The notes below the pieces were generated by a model that had not been told where the DNA came from, made no database searches, and worked only from the letters and a program-made list of their open reading frames with translations. Positions 21,483 to 39,662 of a stretch of DNA of 59,493 nt are shown piece by piece (position 1 is the first letter of the stretch; the number at the start of each line of letters is the position of its first letter). The DNA lies in IMG/VR virus record IMGVR_UViG_3300019458_000009, positions 1 to 59,493 of that record, one strand, 5' to 3'. The DNA is from a virus. A program made the position numbers and the translations under genes.

Positions 21483-21956
21483 TCACCGCCCCAGAACGAG
21501 CTCCACCACGAAGTCCCCGTTCGCCGCGCGTACTCGGTAGATCTCCTCAAACCCCTCCGCGAGCGCGACACCCTCGTAGGAGTTAGCTTTGCGGAATACC
21601 TCGCTCTCGGGGTAGACCTTACGCCGCCGCGCGTTGCGCTGGAGGCACTCATCCAGCCCCGTGTCGAACACGTAGGCGATCGCGCGCACATAGGGCTTGA
21701 ACAAGCCTACGGCGCGCTCGCGCGCCCGGCGCCGGTGGAACGTGCCGTCGAGCATCACACGCGAGTTGCTCGCCCGTGGGTAGTCACGCCGCTTCGCAGC
21801 CACCGCCTCCACCATCTCCCAGAAGCCCCGGTAGTCCGGGGCGAAGGCGTCGGCCTCCAGCACCACCCAGTCGACCCCGTGCTGCCGGGCGAACGTGGTC
21901 TTGCCCGCGGCCGGGAGGCCTACCAGGATCGCCAGCTGCGTGGTCACTACACCCAT
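21483..21956 (-). CDS. P-loop kinase, AAA_33/polynucleotide-kinase-like (157 aa).
   Basis: Walker A GLPAAGKTT lies near the N-terminus. The size and layout fit small nucleotide/polynucleotide kinases. Confidence 0.6.
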   Translation of the reverse strand: MGVVTTQLAILVGLPAAGKTTFARQHGVDWVVLEADAFAPDYRGFWEMVEAVAAKRRDYPRASNSRVMLDGTFHRRRARERAVGLFKPYVRAIAYVFDTGLDECLQRNARRRKVYPESEVFRKANSYEGVALAEGFEEIYRVRAANGDFVVELVLGR

Positions 21957-27555: not shown

Positions 27556-28089
27556 TCAATCAGACGCCATACGGTCTCGAGCGGAGAGCTCGAGCGCCAC
27601 GCCGGCGTCCTTCGAGGCGCCACGTGCTACCACGATCAGGTCTTCGTACTGCGGAAATAGCCGACGAGACCGGTTGACCACCACCAGGTGGTATGGCAGC
27701 TCTCGCCCGGTGGCCAGCTCCCACACCCGGCGCTGGTAACTGACCATGATCTGCTTCTTGTTCTGGAAGAGCGAACGGCAGAAGTTCACCAGCACCTCAC
27801 GGCCGAGGCGGGTGCGCCGGTTGACGAGTGCGTTGGGCCCGGACACGAAGTAGGAGAGCACCTGTCGCCGGAAGTTCACGACATGCCGCCGAGAGCCCCG
27901 GCGGCGGTCCTTGTTCGCCACGGACTCGCAGTTCTTGCACAGGCTGCTGGTCTGGTTGTACGTCCCGCCACAGAAGATCGAGCCGCGGCGGCAGCGCCAG
28001 AATTCGGCGTTGACGCCCCACGCGGTGCGCCACACCCCGTCGACGCCTCGGCGCACTTCCGTCGTCCACTTGCGCCTTGACTTACTCAT
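27556..28089 (-). CDS. Basic hypothetical protein with a zinc-ribbon-like motif, in a low-GC patch (177 aa).
   Basis: GAGG RBS, then ATG 28089. The motif is CGGTYNQTSSLCKNC. I considered a degenerate HNH/homing-endonuclease, but no clear catalytic motif is present. Confidence 0.45.
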   Translation of the reverse strand: MSKSRRKWTTEVRRGVDGVWRTAWGVNAEFWRCRRGSIFCGGTYNQTSSLCKNCESVANKDRRRGSRRHVVNFRRQVLSYFVSGPNALVNRRTRLGREVLVNFCRSLFQNKKQIMVSYQRRVWELATGRELPYHLVVVNRSRRLFPQYEDLIVVARGASKDAGVALELSARDRMASD

Positions 28090-28375
28090 CCCGCGGCCTC
28101 GGCTCAAGGACGGTCACCACGACGTGGCTGGGCATGAGCGCAGAATAGAACCAGTAGTCGCCCGATTGGCCGGGCGCCAGCTCGATCGTACGGCTCAAAA
28201 CTCCGGCTGAGGCGGTGATTCGGACCGGCCGGTCGAGGCCGTTCTTCAGTAAGAAGGTCACTCGCTGCCCGGTCAGTGACCCGCAGGCGGCGGACGTCAG
28301 CAGCGCCATCGAGAGCGCGATCACCCTGATAAACAGCATATAAATGTGACGACTCAAGACTGTCCTTTGTTTCAT
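28082..28375 (-). CDS. Small lipoprotein-like secreted protein (97 aa).
   Basis: ATGA coupling. The hydrophobic leader IALSMALLTSAAC is followed by a beta-rich body. This is the most AT-rich coding stretch of the early arm. Confidence 0.5.
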   Translation of the reverse strand: MKQRTVLSRHIYMLFIRVIALSMALLTSAACGSLTGQRVTFLLKNGLDRPVRITASAGVLSRTIELAPGQSGDYWFYSALMPSHVVVTVLEPRPRDE

Positions 28376-28629
28376 GAATTTTTAGATTGCTCGATTAAGT
28401 TCTTGAGGTACTCGTCGCAGCGCTCCAGCGAGAGGCTGGCTAACGCCGCGGAGTTCAGCAGCACCGGCAGTTGCTCTGGCGCCCACAGGTCGAGCACGAC
28501 CGGGCTCCCGTTGAACTGAAGCTCCGCGTAGTTTTGCACGAACGCCTCGGCGGCACCCATGGCCTGGTGCGGCACCAGGTACTCGTCAGCCTCGGCCACC
28601 CCAACAAACCTAACGCGCATCACGCACAC
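28372..28629 (-). CDS. Hypothetical protein (85 aa).
   Basis: GGAGGG lies 8 nt before GTG 28629. Confidence 0.5.
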   Translation of the reverse strand: MCVMRVRFVGVAEADEYLVPHQAMGAAEAFVQNYAELQFNGSPVVLDLWAPEQLPVLLNSAALASLSLERCDEYLKNLIEQSKNS

Positions 28630-28888
28630 GTTGTTCGCCCTCCACGAAGTCCAAGCGGCTGGACGGATAGCGCCCGCGCGCGACGCGCATGCGCTGGTCG
28701 ACCTCGGGGCACCCGCGGTGCAGGCAGTCGGCGCACGTGGACGGGAATGACGGAAGGATCCGCACCACGTCCTCCACTAGGCCGCAGCACCCGCACCGCT
28801 CCCGACGCCCACACCACTGCGCGAAAAAGCCGGGCGACCGGCCGCGCCGACATCCGCACGGCCGTTTATTGTGCTTTTTCTTCGGCAA
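28610..28888 (-). CDS. Possible Cys-rich mini-protein (about 92 aa). The start is uncertain.
   Basis: The only open frame between the polymerase stop and 28629. It has no ATG or GTG, and TTG 28888 is the candidate start. Motifs CGC, CGCC and C..C are present. Confidence 0.3.
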   Translation of the reverse strand: MPKKKHNKRPCGCRRGRSPGFFAQWCGRRERCGCCGLVEDVVRILPSFPSTCADCLHRGCPEVDQRMRVARGRYPSSRLDFVEGEQRVRDAR

Positions 28889-30872
28889 GGTCCAGGTCCT
28901 CGGCCTCGCTCCACCGAGCGTGGGCAATCTGCGCGTCGACGTAGATGGGTACGCGCATACGAGGCTGCCCCGCATCGTCCAGGAAGGTCTCCAGCACCGG
29001 GCGCAGCGCCCGCGCCGCCTCGAGCGCCGCCTCGCCCGGCACCTCGAACATAAGCTCGTCGTGGATCGTCACCAGGAGGCTTCCATCGAAGCGCTTGGCT
29101 ACCTCGTGCCCTCGAATGGCCTGGTACTTCAACAAGTCCGCCGAACTGCCCTGGCAGATGGCGTTGAGTGCCTGGTACGGCTTCAGTCCGCGGTCTTCCT
29201 TGCCTTGGCCCTTGCCCCAGCCCCACCGCTTGGCCGCGCGGCGCCGGCGGCCCAGGATCGTCTTGACGTAGCCGCGCTGCATAAGCGCCCGGCTCACGCG
29301 GTCCTGGAGGCCGGCGAGCTCCGGCACCTCGCGGTGGTAGGCCTCCAGGACCCGCCGCGCGGCGGCCTCGTCCACCGCCGCGTCGTTGTCCGACATGAAC
29401 CGCACCAGCTTATCCTGGCCCATGCCATACACAATGCCGAAGTTACCAGACTTCATGAGGCTGCGCTTCAAGCTGGTGCCCAGGATTCCGTTCATAAGGT
29501 CAGTCGCCCACTGGTGCATGTCCATCGTAGCGTCGCTTGCGTACGCCTGGATCAGGCGGGGCGAGTTGGTGTAGTGCGCAAAGAACCGGTACTCGATCTG
29601 GCTGGCGTCGAACAGCAGCAGCGCATAGCCCGGCCGCGGCACGAAATACTGACGGGCGCCGGGCGCGCGCCACGTCTCGACTTGGCCCTCGTTCATCTCT
29701 AGGGTAAATTCCTCTTCGTCTGGCACCTGCTGCAGGTTGGGTGAATCGGACGACATGCGGCCCGTGCGCGCGCCGAGCTGGTTGAAGTTCGAGTGGATCG
29801 CGTGATCGATCTCGCATTCTAGGTAAGCCTCGATGAACGAGTTGCGGATGTGGTGCAGCCGCCGCGCCTTGCGGATGTTCCAGAAGACGCGCCGGTGGTC
29901 CGGGTATTCCCGGATATACCGTAGCAGCACCTCGTCGTCAAACCGTGGCAGCCCATACGGGTGTCGGCCCGATGGTTTCGTGCGCCCCAGGATCGGAAGT
30001 CCCAGCTTGTGTTGGACCGCGTCGGCGAGCTCCTCGATGGAGCCCGGGTTGACCGACACGCCGATCAACTTCTCCAGCTCGGCCTCCAGCTCGATGGCCT
30101 CCGCAAGCGTATCGCGACGATCTTTTTTAAGCCGGTCTACATCTACCAGGACGCCACGCAGCTCGCTCTCCACCAGGACGCGCAGCATCTCGCACTCCAT
30201 GGCGTACACCGCCTCAACTTCCTCAGTGGCCAGCTTTGGCGCCTGCCACGCGGCCAGGCGCAGCGCGCGCTCCACATCGGAGCACCCGTACGGCGCCATG
30301 ACGTCGACCGGCACGACGGACCAATCCTGGCGGGCCTTCTTCTGGCCTATCAAGTAGGCATCCTTAGCGGCCTCTTCGTCGGCCGGCATGTTTAGGTACT
30401 TCGCGGTGATGGGCTTCAGTGAGTGCGTCGGCTCCCTTTCGTCGATCAACTGCGAGGCAAGCATCGTGTCCAGTAGCCGGGCGCCCGCGTAGTCACCGGG
30501 CTGCAGCGCGCCGTTCACGATCAAGTGCTTGAGATCAAACTTCAAATTTTGGTTGACTATGAACTTGGCCGATCGTGTGATCTGCGTTAGCCAGTGGTAC
30601 ACCTGCGCGCTGTTTAAATTTTTATCCGCGTCGCTGGGGCTGCGGTGGCGTAGTGGCAGATACCATGCCTCGCCCGGCACCGCGACGGATATTCCTAGCA
30701 GGTCGGCGTGCCAGGGATTCAGCCCGGCGCCGTCGATCTCGCGAGACTTCTGATCTGGCATTGTCTCGATATCGACCGCCACGACCGGTTGCCCGACCAG
30801 GTTCGGCAGCGATTCCCCGGGCGTGACAAGGTTCTTTTTAAACTCGAGCTTGGCCCAGCTTGGGTCGATCAT
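28866..30872 (-). CDS. Family A DNA polymerase with a 3'-5' exonuclease domain (668 aa).
   Basis: ATG 30872 sits in an ATGA overlap. Exo I is VAVDIETMP. Motif A is LLLFDASQIEYRFFAHY, motif B is RSLMKSGNFGIVYGMG, and motif C is VTIHDELMFEV. Confidence 0.9.
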   Translation of the reverse strand: MIDPSWAKLEFKKNLVTPGESLPNLVGQPVVAVDIETMPDQKSREIDGAGLNPWHADLLGISVAVPGEAWYLPLRHRSPSDADKNLNSAQVYHWLTQITRSAKFIVNQNLKFDLKHLIVNGALQPGDYAGARLLDTMLASQLIDEREPTHSLKPITAKYLNMPADEEAAKDAYLIGQKKARQDWSVVPVDVMAPYGCSDVERALRLAAWQAPKLATEEVEAVYAMECEMLRVLVESELRGVLVDVDRLKKDRRDTLAEAIELEAELEKLIGVSVNPGSIEELADAVQHKLGLPILGRTKPSGRHPYGLPRFDDEVLLRYIREYPDHRRVFWNIRKARRLHHIRNSFIEAYLECEIDHAIHSNFNQLGARTGRMSSDSPNLQQVPDEEEFTLEMNEGQVETWRAPGARQYFVPRPGYALLLFDASQIEYRFFAHYTNSPRLIQAYASDATMDMHQWATDLMNGILGTSLKRSLMKSGNFGIVYGMGQDKLVRFMSDNDAAVDEAAARRVLEAYHREVPELAGLQDRVSRALMQRGYVKTILGRRRRAAKRWGWGKGQGKEDRGLKPYQALNAICQGSSADLLKYQAIRGHEVAKRFDGSLLVTIHDELMFEVPGEAALEAARALRPVLETFLDDAGQPRMRVPIYVDAQIAHARWSEAEDLDLAEEKAQ

Positions 30873-31861
30873 AGGGTCTCCATCAAAGCGCCGGCCACCA
30901 GGGCTCGCAGACGCACGCCCCACTCGGGCAGTCGCTGTGACTCAAAGCGGCGCAGGTACTGCGGGTGCGGAAACTTGTGATGCGTGATGTTATGCTTGTG
31001 TAGATATTTCGCCGCCGATTCACCGAGCGCGATTACGATCTTTGGCGAGAGCCAAATTATCGCGCGCGGATCGAGTTCATCGCCGTCGTTGTCGTACGCG
31101 TTCACCAGGTACAACGAGCGCTCGCCCACGCCGGCGAAGTCTAACAAATCGCTGAGAGTTTTACTGCATCCGTTAAAGCCCGCGAACGGGCGCATGCCGG
31201 TTATATCGCCGCCTACCTGCTCTCCAACTAGAAGAATCTTCGGCCACAGGTAGCCCCAGCTCTGGGGCGCAAAGCCGGTGATCGTCATAGACCGATCCAG
31301 GTGCATGCGCCATACATCGAGCGACCACGTGAGCGCTTGTGCGACGGCGTCTTCATTGCCATCGGACGTATCAATCTCTGAAAGGTACGTCACGCCCCGC
31401 CGTCCCAGCGCAAGGTCTTTCAACGCAACATCGTAATATTGATTGATGGCGTTGTAATGTCCCACGGTTTGGCACATATCATCGCGGCCTCGTTCGATCA
31501 TGCGGCGCGCGATTGAATCTACGTTGGCTCGCAGGAGCACTTGCACGCTGCCCGCGCGATTAAGCTCACGCGCTACCAGGCGACGGAGGTGCGGCGTGAA
31601 CTTGGGATTTACGCCGTTACGAAACGCGGCGCCGTACGCCAACTCCGACAGGGCGAATCGATCTGACAGCTGTCCACCTTTAGTCACCGCATCTAGGTAA
31701 CTCTGTCCGTAGTTAAAATTCTCCGGCAAGCGACCCCAGTGCTGTATCTTGATAACGTCGCGCCCGTACCACCGGGGCCACTTTGCGCGGTTGATCTTTG
31801 TCCGCGCTTGATTTAAGAAGGTTGTCTTGCCGACGAAGTCGGCGCCCTCGACGATGAACAC
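30869..31861 (-). CDS. Fusion of a thymidylate/dNMP-kinase-like P-loop domain with a UDG-superfamily (family 4/5-like) domain (330 aa).
   Basis: The N-terminal half has FIVEGADFVGKTTF and SDRFALSELAYGA, the TMK-type P-loop and DRY-like block. The C-terminal half has LLVGEQVGGDITGMRPFAGFNGCSKTLSDLL and HKFPHPQYLRR, which resemble UDG motifs A and B. GTG 31861 after AGGAAA is preferred; GTG 31900 is the alternative. Confidence 0.6.
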   Translation of the reverse strand: MFIVEGADFVGKTTFLNQARTKINRAKWPRWYGRDVIKIQHWGRLPENFNYGQSYLDAVTKGGQLSDRFALSELAYGAAFRNGVNPKFTPHLRRLVARELNRAGSVQVLLRANVDSIARRMIERGRDDMCQTVGHYNAINQYYDVALKDLALGRRGVTYLSEIDTSDGNEDAVAQALTWSLDVWRMHLDRSMTITGFAPQSWGYLWPKILLVGEQVGGDITGMRPFAGFNGCSKTLSDLLDFAGVGERSLYLVNAYDNDGDELDPRAIIWLSPKIVIALGESAAKYLHKHNITHHKFPHPQYLRRFESQRLPEWGVRLRALVAGALMETL

Positions 31862-31871
31862 GATTATTTTC

Positions 31872-32900
31872 CTAATGAAAGCAAAAGTTAAATACGCCAC
31901 CGAGTTTCTGGCGCAACAGCTCTTCTAGCGTACGCCGCGCCGCCTCGGAGGTCTCCACGCCGAGTTGTACTCGCTTCCAAAGCCACGCGGTCTCGGCAAG
32001 TTGTTCAAGCGAATTGAGTTCCGCGCGGCCAATGATGCGGTCTGTCAACCTCGCCTCAGCGGTCTTAGCGTCCAGCGACTTCGTCCACGCCGCGCGTAAC
32101 GGTAATTGCAATTCAGCGTTCGGCCTTAACGGGAATGACTCAGATGTTAAAGATACGTTGTCGCCAAGTTCGCCATAGTAGTATTCCAAGATCCGCTCGG
32201 TCGCGCTCCAATTACGCTCGTACAGGTGCAATGACCCCACTTGGTGTACGTACTCTCCAACGTACGCGCCGAGCTGCTGAGCCATGAGCTCCTGCAGCGC
32301 GGTGAAACAAAAGATGTCATAAAGCGTGCCCAGCCACAGGTCGTTCGATCTCATCGTTGTAATGAGATTTAAGTGGCCGTCGCGCAGCAAAAATTGCAGC
32401 GCCAGCGTGCAGGGATAATCCTTTGTCTTAGCGCCTACGTCCGTCGGCGCGTAGATGGGGATGACCGCCTGGCGCGTGTCGGGATCGTTACGAAGTAGGC
32501 GTTGACACTTTAACCACGGCGACGTTTGTTGACTCTGGCCCAGCTCATCACGGTCCTCAACGCACGGACCAAAGATGCGCGGACCATACGCGCCGTATAA
32601 ATGCGCGCCGTCATCGGAGAACTGCCCATAGCTTGGCGCGTAGTATTTGATGTACTCCAAGTTGTCGGACCCGCACAGGTACCACGCCAGCTCACCGGCC
32701 GCGTACGCCAGCGACCAGCGCCGAAACGGGATCAACGGGATACGGGCGACCGGATCGGTGAGCGTTAACTGCGCCGCCAAAATCTCCTTAGTCCGTTGAC
32801 CGCGAGGCGCCACGTCGGTTCCGTGCCAATACACTCGGCGCAGCGCTTGCCGCCACACGTTAGTTAAACTGTCTCCGCTAACGACGCACTCGTTATCCAC
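31872..32900 (-). CDS. Thymidylate-synthase-fold pyrimidine C5 transferase, probably deoxycytidylate-specific (dCMP hydroxymethylase-like) (342 aa).
   Basis: GGAGG RBS, then GTG 32900. The block YPCTLALQFLLRDGHLNLITTMRSNDLWLGTLYDIFCF aligns without gaps to E. coli ThyA [38 protein letters not shown]. The catalytic Cys is kept and Asn177 is replaced by Asp. NDPDTRQ and SLHLYE blocks are also present. Confidence 0.7.
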   Translation of the reverse strand: MDNECVVSGDSLTNVWRQALRRVYWHGTDVAPRGQRTKEILAAQLTLTDPVARIPLIPFRRWSLAYAAGELAWYLCGSDNLEYIKYYAPSYGQFSDDGAHLYGAYGPRIFGPCVEDRDELGQSQQTSPWLKCQRLLRNDPDTRQAVIPIYAPTDVGAKTKDYPCTLALQFLLRDGHLNLITTMRSNDLWLGTLYDIFCFTALQELMAQQLGAYVGEYVHQVGSLHLYERNWSATERILEYYYGELGDNVSLTSESFPLRPNAELQLPLRAAWTKSLDAKTAEARLTDRIIGRAELNSLEQLAETAWLWKRVQLGVETSEAARRTLEELLRQKLGGVFNFCFH

Positions 32901-34098
32901 GATAAACCTCCGCGCGGGGCTTCTTTGGCCGCCAGCCGGGCACACGGTCGAGCCGCGCGACGTAGTGGGCTGGCCCAACGAGCTCGACCAACTCCTGGTC
33001 GCCCTTATATGAGACGCCGGTCGTCAGCGTCTCGTTACAAAGTTTGCCGAACCACCGCCCGACTTCCACGCAGACGCCCTTGCCGATCTGAGCGGCGCCG
33101 TCATCGCCGATGACTACCCAGTCGTCCGGCAAGCCCATGCACCGCGCCATCTCCCGCACCGAGAGCGGGCGCTGGTGATCGGGGTGGAAGTAATGCCAGG
33201 ACCCACTGTAGATTACCTTGCACGGCCGATCCGGGTGCAGCCGGTGCGGTACGTGCCAGCCTAGGTTGATGGCCTGCAAGCGCTCAGGGAGGTCCGCCCA
33301 AGGCAGGTCGCGCACGTTCTCGCCTGGCGCCAGTTTTAACGCAGCTTCAAAGTACGCCCGCGAAGCGGGCGTCGTCTTCCACCAGTAATGGTGGTTGATA
33401 TAATTCGTCGGCGAATTTTTGACCACGCCTTCCAGATCGTTTAGGGTAGATAGATCGAAGACGGGCAGCGCCGGACAATTCCACAGCGCGCCGTTGTCCT
33501 GGCCGTATAAGACGTCGTGCACTAAGACGTGCGGGCCGCGATGTCGCAGCTCATTCGTGACCGTGGTAAGCGGCGGTTGAAGCCGTTGGTCGACCCACAT
33601 GAAAATCACGCGGGGCCGCCACTGCGAGTTGCCGAACATGTTCGCGTTGTGGTACAACTCGTACAGGGTGTACCCGGCCCCGTGGGTGTGGTGTAGCCAC
33701 TCGATCAGCGGGCGCCCGGTCGTGCCCGCCTGCTGCACCGACTCAAACGCCCATATGCTAGGCTTCAGCCAGGAGGCGAGCTCCGCGAATTGGCGGATGT
33801 CCACCGTCGGCCGGGCCCAGGCGCCGTGCGCGTCTTCAGAACAGCCGTGCCCCAGTGCTGAGAAGCCGGTGCACCGCGGGTTGCCGAATAGCACGTCGAT
33901 GCCGTGAAACTTACTGGCCACGCTGGGCCAGGCCTCGAAGTCGCCGCGGTAGAACGGGATGCCTAAGTTGTGCTCTACGGTCTTTTCCCCCAGCGTGAAG
34001 ACCTCGAGCTGGGCTTGCACTTCTAGACTTTCCGCCATGCCGCAAGTAAAGCCGCCCATGAAGCAATGCGCGCCGAGCGCGGTGAAGCGAGCAGTCAT
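32893..34098 (-). CDS. DNA (cytosine-5)-methyltransferase-like protein (401 aa).
   Basis: Motif I is HCFMGGFTCG, motif IV GNPRCTGFS, motif VI FESV, and motif VIII NSQWRPRVIF. Motif IX is RPLSVREMARCMGLPDDW and motif X is IGKGVCVEV. An ATGA overlap joins it to the upstream gene. Confidence 0.7.
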   Translation of the reverse strand: MTARFTALGAHCFMGGFTCGMAESLEVQAQLEVFTLGEKTVEHNLGIPFYRGDFEAWPSVASKFHGIDVLFGNPRCTGFSALGHGCSEDAHGAWARPTVDIRQFAELASWLKPSIWAFESVQQAGTTGRPLIEWLHHTHGAGYTLYELYHNANMFGNSQWRPRVIFMWVDQRLQPPLTTVTNELRHRGPHVLVHDVLYGQDNGALWNCPALPVFDLSTLNDLEGVVKNSPTNYINHHYWWKTTPASRAYFEAALKLAPGENVRDLPWADLPERLQAINLGWHVPHRLHPDRPCKVIYSGSWHYFHPDHQRPLSVREMARCMGLPDDWVVIGDDGAAQIGKGVCVEVGRWFGKLCNETLTTGVSYKGDQELVELVGPAHYVARLDRVPGWRPKKPRAEVYRG

Positions 34099-34577
34099 GA
34101 GACCCTCTTATCCACGATGTCGATGTGCTGCGCCAACAGCAGCGGGGCCAGGTCGGGCGGTTCATAACCTTCGCCCTTGGGATGCAACGGCGACTTGGCC
34201 TCTTGGTTCGCCGTCTTCGTCATGTTGCTGCGTTGGATCTCTGCGAAGATCGGCGCCAGGTCGATGCCGGCCGCGACGGCCGAGCCGAGTACGACGTACA
34301 GCAGGTCGCCGAGCGCGTCGGCGATCTTCACCACGTCCAGCTGGTGCCACGCCTCCATGAGCTCGCCGGACTCAGAAATCACCATGTGGGCGCGCTCGAC
34401 GCCGGTCTTCCACCACTCGTGGAGCCAGGCCTCGTAACCTTGCGGAAGATGGCAGGCCTTCGTACTGCATCCGGACTTCAACAGGTCGACCACGAAGCCG
34501 TGCTTCTCATGAAAGGTTTTAACCGCCGCCTGCGCTTCACGCAGCGATGGATCGTGCGAGTTAGATCCTGGGCTCAT
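34095..34577 (-). CDS. MazG-like all-alpha NTP pyrophosphohydrolase (160 aa).
   Basis: ATG 34577 sits in an ATGA overlap. The blocks ISESGELMEAW ... ADALGDLLYVVLGSAVAAGIDL ... EIQRSNMTK are typical of MazG-type pyrophosphatases. Confidence 0.65.
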   Translation of the reverse strand: MSPGSNSHDPSLREAQAAVKTFHEKHGFVVDLLKSGCSTKACHLPQGYEAWLHEWWKTGVERAHMVISESGELMEAWHQLDVVKIADALGDLLYVVLGSAVAAGIDLAPIFAEIQRSNMTKTANQEAKSPLHPKGEGYEPPDLAPLLLAQHIDIVDKRVS

Positions 34578-35815
34578 AGCAATTCTCTCCAATCAAACAC
34601 ATGACGTCGACCAAGTTCGGGCGCTTGCCAGTTAAAGTCATCTTTCGTCACCACCGCCTCAATGGAGTCCGGCACGCGGCTCGGTTTGAGTAAATGATGG
34701 CCGGCGAGCTGCTCGCGTTGCAGCCACACACGCTCGATATATTCAGCGCCATACCGACAGCGCTGGATTAATTGTCGCGCCGGCTCGGGCGCCTCCACGT
34801 AATACTTCTCGTCGACGAGCTCCAGGTCGTTGCGCAGCCGCGCGTCGACGAACATCAGCCGGCCTGCCTCCGCTACCTCGCACCAGCGAAATGCGATGAG
34901 CTTGGCGGGGTAGAATTTTCGGTGCGTGATGACGATGGACGCCCAGCAGCGTTGGTACGAGCTCAAGATGTCGCGGGGTGGCACGGGTCCCAGGAACGCC
35001 TCCGCGCCGACGGAGTCCAACAGGTGCGCGTGCCGCTCCAGGTCCCACCGACCCCACACGGCGTTGCGGACCGTCGCGCCGTTGGCGTGCTCGCGCTTGT
35101 AGAATTCCGCCAGGAACTGGTCGCGCTCGTAGTCGTTGCCGACGTAGCCGAAGTCGTACTCCACGCGTGAGGTGTCGATCGCGCGGTCCGGCGGCGTCTG
35201 GTACGGCGGCAGCGAGACGTACTGGTGCCCGGCCCACAGGCGCGCCAGGTACGGCGTGAACAGATAAAAGTAGCTCACGAAATCGGCCCGCGTCGCGTCA
35301 CGGATGGCGCCGGTGAGACGGAACATGTCGTCGAGGCAGGGCAGGAGCCCGTTCGCGCCCAGGTCTTGGTCAAACAAGATCACCGGCACGCCGCTGACTA
35401 CCGCGCGCAAGATGACCGCCGTGACCTCCAGCTTGGCCGCGAGCGAGACGCACGGGTTGATCTTGAGGCACTGAACGTCGGCCTCCAGCGGCTTGAACTC
35501 GCTGGACTCCAGCCAGGCCTTCAGCCGACGCTGCGCCCGGTTCTGCGGATCGCAGCCCCGCGTCTCCTTGATGAGGTCCAGGATCACACGGTGCAGCCAG
35601 AGGCCTTCGCCGTTCCAGGCGCTCGCGTACCGCCCCGTGTCCTGATAGTCGAACGTGTCGACGTTTGACCCGTCGGGTGGCCGCGCGATGCCATTCAATA
35701 CGATCTCGTGGCCGCGCCGGCGCAGCTCATCGAGCACCGACAACGCAAGTTTTGGCGCGTTGCGAGTAAACACCGAGTCGTCGGTGTTGCCGTACATCCA
35801 CCAGGCAATCTTCAC
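34574..35815 (-). CDS. T4 beta-glucosyltransferase-like DNA glycosyltransferase (413 aa).
   Basis: GTG 35815 sits in a GTGA overlap. From memory of T4 BGT, four blocks correspond (this protein / T4):
- MKIAWWMYGN / MKIAIINMGN
- VILFDQDL / YYLFTDIRL
- GYVGNDYERDQ / IYGGSFRSGQR
- FLGPVPPRDI / FTGKIPMNMV, and IAFRWCEVAEAGRLMFVD / ITLRVWETMASDAVMLID
No search was run to verify this. Confidence 0.55.
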   Translation of the reverse strand: MKIAWWMYGNTDDSVFTRNAPKLALSVLDELRRRGHEIVLNGIARPPDGSNVDTFDYQDTGRYASAWNGEGLWLHRVILDLIKETRGCDPQNRAQRRLKAWLESSEFKPLEADVQCLKINPCVSLAAKLEVTAVILRAVVSGVPVILFDQDLGANGLLPCLDDMFRLTGAIRDATRADFVSYFYLFTPYLARLWAGHQYVSLPPYQTPPDRAIDTSRVEYDFGYVGNDYERDQFLAEFYKREHANGATVRNAVWGRWDLERHAHLLDSVGAEAFLGPVPPRDILSSYQRCWASIVITHRKFYPAKLIAFRWCEVAEAGRLMFVDARLRNDLELVDEKYYVEAPEPARQLIQRCRYGAEYIERVWLQREQLAGHHLLKPSRVPDSIEAVVTKDDFNWQAPELGRRHVFDWRELL

Positions 35816-36120
35816 GGCTGGCCTTTCTCTAAGTTGGCGATGAACCGATCCAGGTACCAGCGCGCCTTCTTAAGATCCTCTAGCGGATGGCCCCTGTGTG
35901 GGCTGCGCGCCACGTACTTCACCACGTTACCCAGGTGGAACGGCAGCTTCTGATCCTCGATGAAGTCGATAATCTCGATCTTGCCGGCTGCGTAGTGGGA
36001 CGGGTAGTCCACAGGGTTGTTATCCTTCACAGGTTCCGCCGCCGGCTCCCTAAATTGAGCCTTGTATTTCTCGATAGGCTGTTCTCTGAACCGCTGACAC
36101 TCGTGGCAATCGCACGACAT
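35812..36120 (-). CDS. DUF3310-like phage protein (102 aa).
   Basis: GGGGTGAGG RBS, then ATG 36120. YPSHYAAGKIEIIDFIEDQKLPFHLGNVVKYVARSPHRG..LEDLKKARWYL matches the DUF3310 pattern. Confidence 0.6.
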   Translation of the reverse strand: MSCDCHECQRFREQPIEKYKAQFREPAAEPVKDNNPVDYPSHYAAGKIEIIDFIEDQKLPFHLGNVVKYVARSPHRGHPLEDLKKARWYLDRFIANLEKGQP

Positions 36121-36124
36121 GGCC

Positions 36125-36790
36125 TCACCCCTTAAATCGGATCTCCACCCACCCCGCCTCCACCCACTTGGCGAAGACCTTCTGGGCATACGCCTCCGCC
36201 TTCATCACGCTCAGCTGCGCGGCGTGGATCAACTGACGCTTAAACTCGTCGTACTCCACGCCGTCGGGCCCGGCGAGTATAATCATCTGGAAGGCCATCC
36301 AAGCGACGCCCCGCTCGAAGGGATTCTCGATCCGCGCCGACACCCGCGCCTTCTTGAGCGACGTGGAGTCCTTGTCGGGCTCGTCGTCAACCTCGTCGAC
36401 CGCCAGGAGACGCGGGCCCATCATGGCGAAGCGTGAGTCGTTCTTCCGCACCGACTCGGGCACCGCTCGTCCGCTGCGCCGGTAGTGTTCACGCTGGTAC
36501 TGCCGCCCCATCGCCTCGATCATCCAGTCGCGGCGCGCGCGAAACGGCGGCTCTTGCCCCAGGTCTTGGCGAAATCGCGCCTCTAACACCAGGCGTGGCA
36601 TACGCTGTAGCTGACGGTAGTAGTGGTGCACCGGCTCCAAGGTAAAGCCGTCCCACGGTGCAGGTGGCGGGAGCTGAATCTCCTCTTTATCGCGCGCCCG
36701 TTGTGTTTGGCGTTTCTCCTCGAGTGCCTTTTGTTGCGCTCGAACCTCACGCATCAGCTCTCGCTCAATGGCGTCTAGATCAGAATTCAT
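36125..36790 (-). CDS. Hypothetical protein (221 aa).
   Basis: GGAGGG RBS, then ATG 36790. The N-terminus is charged and coiled, and the C-terminus is globular. Confidence 0.55.
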   Translation of the reverse strand: MNSDLDAIERELMREVRAQQKALEEKRQTQRARDKEEIQLPPPAPWDGFTLEPVHHYYRQLQRMPRLVLEARFRQDLGQEPPFRARRDWMIEAMGRQYQREHYRRSGRAVPESVRKNDSRFAMMGPRLLAVDEVDDEPDKDSTSLKKARVSARIENPFERGVAWMAFQMIILAGPDGVEYDEFKRQLIHAAQLSVMKAEAYAQKVFAKWVEAGWVEIRFKG

Positions 36791-39662
36791 CTGGCCCTCC
36801 CGTTCTCGCTTGGTTGCCGGCGAACTCTAGACTTTGAAACCGCTTCAACAGCTCGATGAACGCGCCCGTCTTGTAGTAGGAGTTCTGCTGCCGGCGGAGC
36901 GCATTGCTGCGCACGAGCAGGGACAGCAGATCCCGCGCCTGGTCCTTGCCCACGCCACCCCAGTCGCCGATGTCCGATGGACGGATCTCCCCAGAGCGCA
37001 TTAATCCCTTGATCGTCTCCATCGGGTACGGGAGCGCCATCAAGGCGGCCTTGATGGAGGCGACGTCGGTCACGGCGGCGTCCGATCGCTTAACGTCCGA
37101 ATAGTCCGCGTACCCCATGAATCGAGACGAGTAGATTGTGTTTAGAAATTCCGCGGCCCAGCGCACGTGGCCCTCGCGGACCACCAGCCGCTCCCCGTAC
37201 TCATCGCACGAGAACGTGCGGGCCGCAATGGCGGCCGCCAGGCGGGCGAGCTTCAACCGGTGGTCGGCGGGCTCCACGAGCGGGATCGCCGAGGAGTAGC
37301 GCTGGCCCTGCTCCACCGCCAGGTCGAGGCAGGCTTGCGTGGCGGCGGGCTCCAGGACCACGTCTTCCGGCCGCCGCGACCAGACCCAGAGGATTAGGCG
37401 CCGGCACAGCTCAGATGTAAATCTATGCGGCACGGGCTCGCGCTGCACCTGTTGGGTGATGACCGCCGCGTCTACCTCGTTGGAGGCCACGACCAACGCG
37501 GCGTCAAACCGGCGGACGTCCTCCAGGGAACCCAGCAGCTCCTTGATCGCCTCCGCGCCAAAGCTGTACGTCTCGATCCTGCGGTCGGATCGCGGGTTCG
37601 AGATCCACAGCAGCCGGGTGCGAGCGAACGTGCTACGCCGCTCGATCTTCGTCAGCTCGGCGCGCCCGCTGGACCGCATGTCCGTGAGCGACTGCAGCAC
37701 CTCCGGCGGGCAACCCTTGACCTCCTCCAGGATCACCAAGCGGCGGTCGTTGAGCGGGATGGCTCCCCACGTTACGAACCAGCGGCCTTGCGTCTCCTGC
37801 ACGCCGCCCTTCAACCCAGCGGTTGACGCGCCCTTCATGTCGACGCGCTCGCCGACGCCGTAGTGTTTCAACAAGCGTGACGCCGTCTCGGTCTTGCCTT
37901 GGCCCGAGTCACCGATTACCAGCGCGTCCACCCAGCCCTTGATCGGCTCGCCGTTGAACGTAACGAACAGCGCCGAGTGCCACACCAGGTCCATGAGCGC
38001 GTGTAGCTGGCGCCGCTGGTAAATGCGGGTCACGTTCGCCTCGAGGTCGGAGTAAATCTCGTCCAGTTTACCCTGCACACCCGCTGAAGACCAGTCATCG
38101 TTGGTCGGCTGGAACAGCAGCAGCTCATTGAGTTCCTCGGTCGAGGGCTTAAAACTGGACAGGTTGTCCACGTTGGGTTTGGCCTCGTACGCCAACAAGG
38201 TCGCCACCTGCGTGGCGGGGTCCACGACCGATCGCGCCGTGATCTCGTAGGTCGCGTTCGTCTCGATGCCGTGCCCGACGTGAAAGGCCCGCACAACCGC
38301 ATTCTCCGACGACGCCGGCGTCAGGTTGGTCGTGGAGAATTGCGGTACGAGCCGCACCTCCTCGATGTTGTGCTGGTCCGCGATCAGCAGGTCCGACACG
38401 TCACAGCCGGTCGGGATGCCGATCTTCTCGCGAATCGCGCGATCTTGAGCCGAAGTCGTCACATTGATGAACTCCAGGAGCTCGGCCTCATCGGCCTCAA
38501 ACTCCCACGCCGCGTCGCCCGCTTGGTTCAGGAACACCGGACACACGGCGCACATCTCCATGTTCTTCGGGCAGTTGACCTTTACCGTGCGCGGCGCGAT
38601 GTACGGCGAGGTATTCTTCGCGCTGACGATGACGGGGACCTTTACGCGCTTTTGATAGTACTGCGCCTTCGACGCGCTGCTCAGGTCCACGTCATAGACG
38701 TTAGCGTCGTCGGGCAGCTCAAACGGCTTATCTTTTTGAAACTGCGGCGTCCCTACGATCAGGTTGCGAAAGTCCTGCGGGCCGTAGCCGCCTTGGACGA
38801 AATAGTCCAGCACGTCGCCGTGCGGGTGCCGCTGCAAGTCGAGCGGCAACTGGACGACGCGCACCTCCGCGGCCAGGTCAACTAAGCGGTTCGCCAACCG
38901 CTTAGCGCCGTCCGCCCCGGCCTGGTCTACGTCATAGGCAATCACGACGCGCTTGCCGCGAAACAACGGCGACCACTCGTCACGCCAGTTGCGCGAGCCG
39001 CCGGTCGCGGTGACGGCGTTGAAGCCGCGTTGGCGCAGGCCAATCATCTTGAGCTCACCCTCCGCGACGACAATCTCCTCGCTGCCCTGCAAAGCTTCGT
39101 GCGGCACGAGCCGAATCTGCCCGTGGCGGGCGAGGCTGGTGTACTTCTTTGCCGGTGGGTGAATCTTTAATAGATCGTACGATCGGATGTTGACGAACAA
39201 CCCGGCTTCGTCTTTGATCGGAATGGTCAGGCGGCGAGCCTTCGCGTCCCACCCGAGACGAAACTTGTCCACCGACTCGCCAGAGAGCCCCTTGCTCTTT
39301 TCTAAGAGCTCCAGGAGCTCCGCCGATAGACGCAGCGCGCCGTAATATTCTTCGACGATGCGTGGATTGACCGCATAATCCGGCGTCACGCCGATCGTAC
39401 GCGCGAGCAGGGTCACCACGGCGTGCCGCGGCTGCCCGGTGACCTGGGCCCACAGGTCAATGACGGACCCCTCCTTGCCGCAGCCGAAGCACTTGAAAAG
39501 CTTATTCCGGACGTTGACCGAGCACGACGGCGTGCGGTCGTCGTGGAATGGGCACTGGATCTTCGCCTCGCCGCGCGCGTCGGGCTCCGGGAAGTCCACC
39601 AGGAGCTCCCGCATCGCAGCCAGCCCGTCGAGACGCTTTAAGACGTCCTTAGAATCGTTCAA
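36780..39662 (-). CDS. Primase-helicase: a DnaG-type zinc finger and Toprim domain fused to an MCM-like AAA+ helicase (960 aa).
   Basis: The CHC2 finger is CPFHDDRTPSCSVN..FKCFGCG and the Toprim block is VVAEGELKMIGL...VIAYDVDQAG. A Zn/OB-like block follows (VKVNCPKNMEMCAVCP). Walker A is VIGDSGQGKTE and Walker B is LVILEEV. The MCM-like LQSLTDMRSSGRAELTKIERRSTFARTRLLWISNP is also present. A TTG start at 39662 is inferred. Confidence 0.75.
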   Translation of the reverse strand: MNDSKDVLKRLDGLAAMRELLVDFPEPDARGEAKIQCPFHDDRTPSCSVNVRNKLFKCFGCGKEGSVIDLWAQVTGQPRHAVVTLLARTIGVTPDYAVNPRIVEEYYGALRLSAELLELLEKSKGLSGESVDKFRLGWDAKARRLTIPIKDEAGLFVNIRSYDLLKIHPPAKKYTSLARHGQIRLVPHEALQGSEEIVVAEGELKMIGLRQRGFNAVTATGGSRNWRDEWSPLFRGKRVVIAYDVDQAGADGAKRLANRLVDLAAEVRVVQLPLDLQRHPHGDVLDYFVQGGYGPQDFRNLIVGTPQFQKDKPFELPDDANVYDVDLSSASKAQYYQKRVKVPVIVSAKNTSPYIAPRTVKVNCPKNMEMCAVCPVFLNQAGDAAWEFEADEAELLEFINVTTSAQDRAIREKIGIPTGCDVSDLLIADQHNIEEVRLVPQFSTTNLTPASSENAVVRAFHVGHGIETNATYEITARSVVDPATQVATLLAYEAKPNVDNLSSFKPSTEELNELLLFQPTNDDWSSAGVQGKLDEIYSDLEANVTRIYQRRQLHALMDLVWHSALFVTFNGEPIKGWVDALVIGDSGQGKTETASRLLKHYGVGERVDMKGASTAGLKGGVQETQGRWFVTWGAIPLNDRRLVILEEVKGCPPEVLQSLTDMRSSGRAELTKIERRSTFARTRLLWISNPRSDRRIETYSFGAEAIKELLGSLEDVRRFDAALVVASNEVDAAVITQQVQREPVPHRFTSELCRRLILWVWSRRPEDVVLEPAATQACLDLAVEQGQRYSSAIPLVEPADHRLKLARLAAAIAARTFSCDEYGERLVVREGHVRWAAEFLNTIYSSRFMGYADYSDVKRSDAAVTDVASIKAALMALPYPMETIKGLMRSGEIRPSDIGDWGGVGKDQARDLLSLLVRSNALRRQQNSYYKTGAFIELLKRFQSLEFAGNQARTGGPDEF

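Follow-up and report, generated by a model that had tools for sequence, protein, structure and literature searches.

The viral DNA analyzed here, IMG/VR record IMGVR_UViG_3300019458_000009 (positions 1 to 59,493, the whole 59,493-nucleotide (nt) stretch being called the window below), harbors on its minus strand a gene for a 342-amino-acid (aa) thymidylate synthase (TS) homologue, which probably encodes a folate-dependent deoxycytidylate (dCMP) 5-hydroxymethylase. We infer the substrate from an Asp at the position that sets pyrimidine specificity in E. coli ThyA. The predicted product follows from a second Asp at position 143, the absence of a ThyA-type C-terminal lid, the placement of the protein in the clade of MilA, the cytidylate (CMP) 5-hydroxymethylase of Streptomyces rimofaciens, and the contrast with the enzyme of PaMx74, a 5-methylcytosine (5mC) phage. 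These features allow hydroxymethyl to be told from methyl reasonably well from sequence, and since every available discriminator favors hydroxymethyl, the opinion of the preliminary description that sequence cannot separate the two products was too cautious. The elements of the gene on which the argument leans are the following.

32907 to 32911, minus strand: GGAGG ribosome-binding site, read directly from the letters, with a 6 nt spacer to the GTG
32900 to 32898, minus strand: GTG start codon, overlapping the TAA stop of the preceding gene
31872 to 32900, minus strand: TS-like gene, predicted dCMP hydroxymethylase, 342 aa plus stop (PF00303, MilA match, AlphaFold2 model, Foldseek)
32469 to 32474, minus strand: Arg143-Gln144, equivalent to ThyA R126-R127, with R126 kept and R127 changed to Gln (alignment; PMC5175136)
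32469 to 32471, minus strand: codon of Gln144, equivalent to ThyA R127 (alignment columns)
32409 to 32420, minus strand: DYPC motif, with Asp161 (equivalent to Leu143, the hydroxymethyl marker of PMC13326640) and Cys164 (alignment)
32409 to 32411, minus strand: codon of Cys164 in YPC, equivalent to the catalytic Cys146 (alignment columns)
32310 to 32351, minus strand: block RSNDLWLGTLYDIF, residues 184-197, equivalent to E. coli ThyA R166-A179, gap-free in HMMER and MAFFT
32316 to 32318, minus strand: GAC codon of Asp195, at the Asn177 pyrimidine-specificity position of ThyA (MAFFT and HMMER columns)
31875 to 32117, minus strand: C-terminal helical domain of MilA type, residues ~262-342 (AlphaFold2 helices and Foldseek)

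A public gene call on the same 59,493-bp contig (P0001) has an identical product of 342 aa, and the opposite (plus) strand over 31872 to 32900 holds only short open reading frames (ORFs) of 50-55 aa. The protein matches PF00303 (Thymidylat_synt) with an expect value (E) of 8.9e-27 and 94.3 bits (cut-off 24.3), and the PHROG thymidylate-synthase families with a best E of 2e-49, which puts the match well outside chance. Homologues in the nearest GenBank phage records already carry the label 'pyrimidine hmase'.

Residue equivalences were taken from a MAFFT alignment of 126 sequences, comprising the 342-aa protein, E. coli ThyA, T4 gp42, RB69 gp48, SPO1 gp29, MilA and the best 120 database homologues, and from pairwise HMMER alignments to solved ThyAs made alongside. 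The column assignment is validated by the controls, each of which shows its published signature in the alignment, i.e. D143/D177 for T4 gp42, E143/N169/D177 for RB69 gp48, D143/N177 for SPO1 gp29 and K126/A167/D143/D177 for MilA. The preliminary description had placed RSNDLWLGTLYDIF without gaps against R166-A179 of E. coli ThyA, with an Asp at Asn177, and had found the catalytic Cys of YPC to be kept. All of this is borne out: the block is gap-free by both methods, Asp195 stays in the 177 column, and Cys164 falls on Cys146. Within the block, Ser185 corresponds to S167, Asn186 to C168, Asp187 to D169, Gly191 to G173 and Asp195 to N177, and beyond these residues Glu70 corresponds to E58, Tyr105 to Y94, Arg184 to R166, His225 to H207 and Tyr227 to Y209. 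The protein has the catalytic set E58, Y94, C146, R166, D169, H207, Y209, R21 and R126, and residues C164, E70, Y105, R184, D187, H225 and Y227 are unchanged throughout a 60-sequence alignment. H147 is replaced by Thr, and the Q165 position is changed too.

Every one of the 120 best homologues also has Asp in the 177 column. The switch from Asn177 to Asp has been known since 1992. The MetaGPA study uses Asp177 as its benchmark residue (PMC8670742), and in a preprint it is the hard filter by which cytosine-modified viral contigs are picked out (bioRxiv 10.1101/2024.12.05.627091). In phage metagenomes, TS homologues with Asp177 already serve as an accepted marker for cytosine modification of the DNA (PMC8670742; bioRxiv 10.1101/2024.12.05.627091; PMC13326640) and, with the residue already textbook knowledge and a screening filter, the finding itself is of an already known kind.

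Concerning the product, the informative column is 143, which holds Asp161 in the window protein and Asp in all 120 homologues as well. Leu143 correlates with a methyl product and Asp or Glu with a non-methyl one, presumably since the bulky side chain excludes water from the exocyclic methylene (PMC13326640). In the proposed mechanism, Cys164 would attack C6 of dCMP, Asp195 would orient and protonate the cytosine, and C5 would receive the methylene from 5,10-methylene-tetrahydrofolate. Because Asp161 replaces the water-excluding Leu143 and the ThyA-type lid is absent, the exocyclic methylene would then be hydrated and not reduced, and the products would be 5-hydroxymethyl-dCMP (5hm-dCMP) and tetrahydrofolate.

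Further positions bear on the sugar and the phosphate. The deoxy-type states Ser167 and Arg126 are present as Ser185 and Arg143; the Lys/Ala pair of MilA type occurs in 7 of the 120 homologues (e.g. P0074 and P0102, placed by sources in Streptoalloteichus and Streptomyces). At R127, the second phosphate-binding arginine of ThyA, Gln is also found in 92 of the 120 and in SPO1 gp29, and Arg in T4 gp42, MilA and ThyA. Five homologues (P0027, P0039, P0067, P0084 and P0111) with the same D143/D177/S167/R126 signature lie on contigs of 0.28-2.4 Mb, and given these lengths they probably reside in bacterial chromosomes or prophages.

MilA (PDB 5b6d, 5jnh, 5jp9; PMC5175136) is the best solved relative, at E 8e-46 as against 1e-16 to 1e-18 for ThyAs, with 43% identity over 222 core residues. 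The two proteins have D143, D177, D169, T147, M165, N168 and an extra C-terminal helical domain in common. The AlphaFold2 model of the window protein, built from 60 homologues, is of high quality (predicted local distance difference test (pLDDT) 94.7, predicted template-modeling (TM) score 0.93) and shows the TS fold. When it is compared with the PDB by Foldseek, MilA chains take the top seven places (E about 1e-25, TM 0.74-0.75, ~348 columns), whereas ThyAs match over ~227 columns only (TM about 0.56); MilA and dozens of ThyAs alike are matched with a Foldseek probability of 1.00. In a viral structure library, the thymidylate synthase of Maribacter phage Colly_1 matches at full length (364 columns, TM 0.78). 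Beyond the ThyA-200 column the window protein has 125 residues vs 65 in ThyA, and no ThyA-type C-terminal lid. Five helices are modeled in this tail (262-275, 278-290, 298-313, 319-333 and 335-340). The C-terminal helical extension of about 80 aa beyond ThyA, pointed out previously, is real but not new: as MilA matches over the full length and ThyAs over ~227 columns, the model identifies it as the known five-helix domain of MilA (helices alpha9-alpha13), which lies away from the active site and is required for solubility (PMC5175136).

The predicted reaction is that of T4 gp42 (EC 2.1.2.8), and the D143/D177/S167/R126/D169 signature is the same. T4 gp42 differs in its sequence (22% identity), in its length of 246 aa without the C-terminal domain, and in keeping W80 and R127.

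The gene is part of a module whose minus-strand genes abut or overlap and read as one block. Its other members are as follows; a further kinase gene, from beyond PolA on the minus strand, is listed last.

36780 to 39662, minus strand: primase-helicase (family scan)
36125 to 36790, minus strand: 221-aa protein with no family match (Pfam/PHROG scan)
35812 to 36189, minus strand: DUF3310 protein (family scan)
34574 to 35815, minus strand: predicted GT-B glycosyltransferase of 413 aa, like the T4 DNA beta-glucosyltransferase (BGT) (family profile, AlphaFold2, Foldseek)
34095 to 34592, minus strand: MazG/PRA-PH nucleotide pyrophosphohydrolase of 165 aa, candidate dCTPase (PF01503 E 3.5e-13; phrog_671 E 8e-20)
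32893 to 34098, minus strand: C5 DNA-methyltransferase-like protein of 401 aa, with an atypical motif IV, GNPRCTGFS (PF00145 E 9e-15)
30869 to 31900, minus strand: P-loop nucleotide kinase with a domain like uracil-DNA glycosylase (UDG), 343 aa, candidate 5hm-dCMP kinase (phrog_761, PF03167)
28866 to 30923, minus strand: family A DNA polymerase PolA, last gene of the module (PF00476 E 1.9e-61)
21483 to 21956, minus strand: second small P-loop kinase, at the far end of the minus-strand block (PF13671 AAA_33 E 3.6e-13)

By analogy with phage T4, these genes would compose a pathway. The MazG/PRA-PH enzyme would convert dCTP to dCMP; the 5hm-dCMP made by the hydroxymethylase would be phosphorylated by the adjacent P-loop kinase and then by the host nucleoside diphosphate kinase; PolA would polymerize 5hm-dCTP, so that 5-hydroxymethylcytosine (5hmC) would replace C in DNA; and the BGT-like GT-B enzyme would glycosylate the hydroxymethyl group on the DNA. 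The logic of dCTPase, hydroxymethylase, dNMP kinase and DNA glycosyltransferase is that of T4. The parts are different in that the T4 dCTPase is gp56 (annotated as dUTPase in its record) and not a MazG/PRA-PH protein, and in that the T4 module has no C5-methyltransferase homologue. The MazG/PRA-PH protein is 37% identical over 84 aa to the PaMx74 pyrophosphohydrolase, and PRA-PH and TS homologues co-occur on cytosine-modified contigs (PMC8670742).

For the glycosyltransferase step, it took a profile of the family and a search by fold to recognize the candidate. The 413-aa protein alone gives no match in Pfam, in PHROGs or by tblastn in cultured phages, and its family has only 10 homologues among 5.8 billion proteins, 4 of which match PF13524. 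The best solved match of the family profile is the T4 BGT (E 0.0018), and the invariant R310 and E313 of the family align to R269 and E272, the UDP-binding residues of that enzyme. An AlphaFold2 model (pLDDT 84.6) retrieves GT-B enzymes in Foldseek, T4 BGT holding ranks 2-4 and 6 (E 1.4e-7 to 4e-7). Profile and model support the prediction that the protein is a GT-B glycosyltransferase like T4 BGT. The glycosyltransferase that the preliminary description invoked in favor of hydroxymethyl stands up in this respect, although its gene lies two genes upstream of the TS-like gene and is not adjacent to it. The overall picture drawn there, of a cytosine-switched TS-family enzyme that is probably a hydroxymethylase feeding glycosylation, is likewise supported by the alignments, the fold and the profiles.

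The adjacent kinase, whose gene comes immediately before that of PolA, matches phrog_761 (thymidylate kinase, E 5.8e-13) across residues 14-191 and PF03167 (UDG, E 2.8e-4, under the curated cut-off) over residues 220-323; the homologue in lineage L009 has PF03167 on record, and a PDB sequence search with the protein returned nothing meaningful. A preprint reports phage family-A polymerases with UDGs that are either encoded in trans or part of a fusion (10.1101/2025.03.26.645540). The TS-like and kinase/UDG-like genes (30869 to 32900) have a G+C of 0.57 and a third-position G+C (GC3) of 0.68-0.69, their neighbors having a GC3 of 0.79-0.84, and may be a later acquisition or of other origin. Along the window the G+C runs from 0.56 to 0.71, mostly 0.63-0.69.

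A tblastn search over the whole contig found no gene for dihydrofolate reductase (DHFR), ThyX, dCMP deaminase or a radical S-adenosylmethionine (SAM) enzyme, the TS-like gene being the only thymidylate-synthase-family gene found, and a scan of ~47 ORFs against Pfam or PHROGs yielded no TET/JBP dioxygenase, DHFR, ThyX, deaminase or carbamoyltransferase. The ORF at 36125 to 36790 was considered as a dioxygenase and rejected, the 221-aa protein having no family match, a charged sequence and no obvious dioxygenase-like motif.

The contig ends, 1 to 123 and 59371 to 59493, are an exact 123-bp repeat, and given this overlap the whole phage genome, ~59,370 bp (about 59.4 kb), has probably been assembled as a circle. 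Judged by sequence comparison, the phage has no close cultured relative: megablast of positions 28000-37000 against 50,697 phage records gave no matches, and the best PolA matches are below 30% identity. Between 28 and 40 kb, an Rfam scan had no matches, and promoter-like or terminator-like sites were not more frequent than in shuffled sequence.

The module is conserved well beyond this genome. The PRA-PH, methyltransferase-like, TS-like and PolA genes are linked in eight of eight diverged uncultured lineages (L005-L009 and L011-L013). Contigs whose TS homologues are 45-50% identical to the window protein repeat the series primase-helicase, unknown, glycosyltransferase-like, PRA-PH, methyltransferase-like, TS-like, kinase/UDG-like and PolA, and three farther lineages were found through the methyltransferase homologue (methyltransferase identity 30-34%, TS identity 31-37%). 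The TS homologues of all eight have identical R126, Q127, D143, C146, T147, S167, N168, D169 and D177. Phages of the clade share proteins of the Pam3_gp32/Pam3_Gp34 families and have genomes of roughly 47-59 kb. Relatives insert additional genes in or near the module, namely radical SAM/SPASM genes (L005 5815 to 6822, L006 9057 to 10010, L007 6704 to 7657), a dCMP deaminase (L008 7721 to 8260 and L013 10709 to 11203, the latter with a kinase too) or dTDP-sugar isomerase and epimerase/reductase genes (L011 11283 to 13569), which suggests that the lineages elaborate cytosine modification in different ways. The window contains none of these additional genes.

The real oddity of the locus is the conserved, atypical C5-methyltransferase homologue, which lies immediately upstream of the TS-like gene in most of the eight lineages and near it in the others. 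Among 5.8 billion proteins its family numbers just 35 at E<=1e-5, and it has three weak matches in 50,697 cultured-phage records. It aligns to M.HaeIII and M.HhaI (hhalign probability 96.5%), the part aligned to M.HhaI beginning at motif IV. It retains the catalytic Cys, the Glu of motif VI and motifs VIII-X; its peculiarities are an invariant GNPRC (Arg-Cys, not Pro-Cys), ESV for ENV, a Gly-rich motif I that is shortened, and the letters GKGVCV in motif X. As the proposed pathway would remove cytosine from DNA, a cytosine-5 methylase would have no obvious substrate. The protein may simply be an orphan methylase whose target is leftover C or the DNA of the host. That it is no ordinary methylase, and acts on 5hmC in DNA or joins an undescribed cytosine hypermodification which radical SAM/SPASM or dTDP-sugar enzymes elaborate further in some lineages, is rather unlikely. 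We also consider it unlikely that 5hm-dCMP is made as proposed while the base that ends up in the DNA is not a glycosyl-5hmC, owing to further action of the methyltransferase homologue and, in relatives, of radical SAM enzymes. That the atypical homologue is linked to a TS homologue in each of the eight lineages would fit such a base, as would the radical SAM/SPASM genes in the module of L005-L007 and the dTDP-sugar genes in L011. Against it, the window has no radical SAM gene by tblastn, and the methyltransferase may be a SAM-dependent methylase of the usual kind, given that its catalytic Cys, the Glu of motif VI, motifs VIII-X and an N-terminal Gly-rich motif are all in place.

Since Asp177 is common to methylases and hydroxymethylases, the TS-like protein could be a dCMP methylase making 5-methyl-dCMP, as does E. 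coli N177D (cited in PMC8670742). Proven 5-methyl-dCMP synthases moreover have a similar neighborhood, with a TS homologue, PRA-PH, PolA and in some relatives a deaminase (bioRxiv 10.1101/2024.12.05.627091). Because Asp177 homologues beside PRA-PH, deaminase and PolA often make 5-methyl-dCMP according to the same preprint, the TS homologue of Pseudomonas phage PaMx74 was chosen as a 5mC control, standing in for the enzyme of Xanthomonas phage Xp12; the preprint describes PaMx74 as a 5mC phage with an enzyme homologous to the Xp12 methylase. The control and the window protein share D177 and a nucleotide pyrophosphohydrolase neighbor. However, they are only 22% identical and differ wherever the two reactions might be told apart: the PaMx74 homologue has Leu143, Trp80, a tail of ThyA length and 35% identity to E. 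coli ThyA, with DHFR (frd) and dCMP deaminase genes adjacent, whereas the window protein has Asp143, Tyr80, the 125-residue tail with its MilA-type helical domain and 25% identity to E. coli ThyA, in a genome with neither DHFR nor deaminase gene. A BGT-like glycosyltransferase, in addition, requires a hydroxyl acceptor. A methylase is thus quite unlikely here. The Asp177 homologues of the MetaGPA work (PMC8670742; bioRxiv 10.1101/2024.12.05.627091) resemble the window protein in Asp177, a non-His residue at 147, PRA-PH and PolA, and a deaminase in relatives, but as a set they mix methylases and hydroxymethylases. In PMC8670742, position 147 is the second to show an association with cytosine-modified contigs. 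The accessible text of these two sources does not describe a clade in which a C5-methyltransferase homologue and a glycosyltransferase like BGT are linked to such a gene.

With MilA as the nearest solved relative in sequence and fold, and with its C-terminal domain in common, one has to weigh a CMP hydroxymethylase of the MilA or BcmA kind, whose 5hm-CMP would go into a small molecule or RNA and not into DNA. MilA prefers CMP because it has Ala176 and Lys133 where ThyA and T4 gp42 have Ser and Arg, and its double mutant A176S/K133R loses CMP activity (PMC5175136); the window protein has Ser and Arg, the same states as this mutant, and also differs from MilA in having Gln at R127. MilA belongs to an antibiotic gene cluster, whereas the gene in the window sits in a phage DNA-replication module, among a DNA methyltransferase homologue, a nucleotide kinase and a phage DNA polymerase, and no MilB-like N-glycosidase was present among the ORFs scanned against Pfam or PHROGs. 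These data make a ribonucleotide enzyme very unlikely.

A flavin-dependent 5-hydroxy-dCMP synthase of the RB69 gp48 / DLP3 gp80 kind (PMC13326640), leading to O-glycosylated 5-hydroxycytosine, would share D177, the acidic side chain at position 143 and a later glycosyltransferase step on DNA, for which a candidate lies nearby. Those enzymes use flavin and O2 and are marked by D169N (PMC13326640), with Asn in RB69 gp48 in our alignment, while the window protein keeps Asp187 at this column, as do 120 of 120 homologues, and is just 23% identical to RB69 gp48. The retained Asp169 argues that it is not a 5-hydroxy-dCMP synthase, a reading we regard as highly improbable. Equally hard to credit is a deoxyuridylate (dUMP) enzyme, be it a thymidylate synthase of the usual sort or, as in SPO1 gp29, a dUMP hydroxymethylase: the gene is the sole member of its family found in the genome, and D143 and the R127-to-Q change are common to SPO1 gp29, but position 177 is Asp where SPO1 gp29 and E. 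coli ThyA have Asn, H147 and Q165 are altered too, and Asp177 is associated with cytosine-modified contigs (PMC8670742).

Several points weigh against the assignment as dCMP hydroxymethylase. The immediate clade of the window protein has no biochemically characterized phage members, and MilA, the closest characterized relative, acts on a ribonucleotide. The Leu143 rule is a correlation and not a proven determinant; five of seven Asp177 homologues beside dCMP deaminase made 5-methyl-dCMP (bioRxiv 10.1101/2024.12.05.627091). Gln at R127 implies a phosphate binding unlike that of ThyA and T4 gp42. The likeness of the glycosyltransferase to BGT is weak (TM about 0.5, in addition to the modest profile score given above). 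Finally, were all cytosine replaced before replication, one would not expect a conserved C5-methyltransferase neighbor.

If the assignment as dCMP hydroxymethylase is correct, this phage lineage would replace cytosine with 5hmC and then glycosylate it, which is the strategy of T4, with parts that differ from those of T4: a hydroxymethylase of MilA type, a pyrophosphatase of MazG type and a BGT-like transferase that has diverged very far. The interest of the locus is modest and lies in this parts list, in the absence of a cultured relative and in the combination of a MilA-like scaffold with deoxy-type Ser and Arg, which makes the protein a natural counterpart to the engineered MilA A176S/K133R. 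The DNA would be resistant to many restriction enzymes and mis-handled by some sequencing chemistries, and the enzymes of the module are potential tools. Pre-replicative 5hmC chemistry would thereby reach high-GC environmental phages without a cultured relative.

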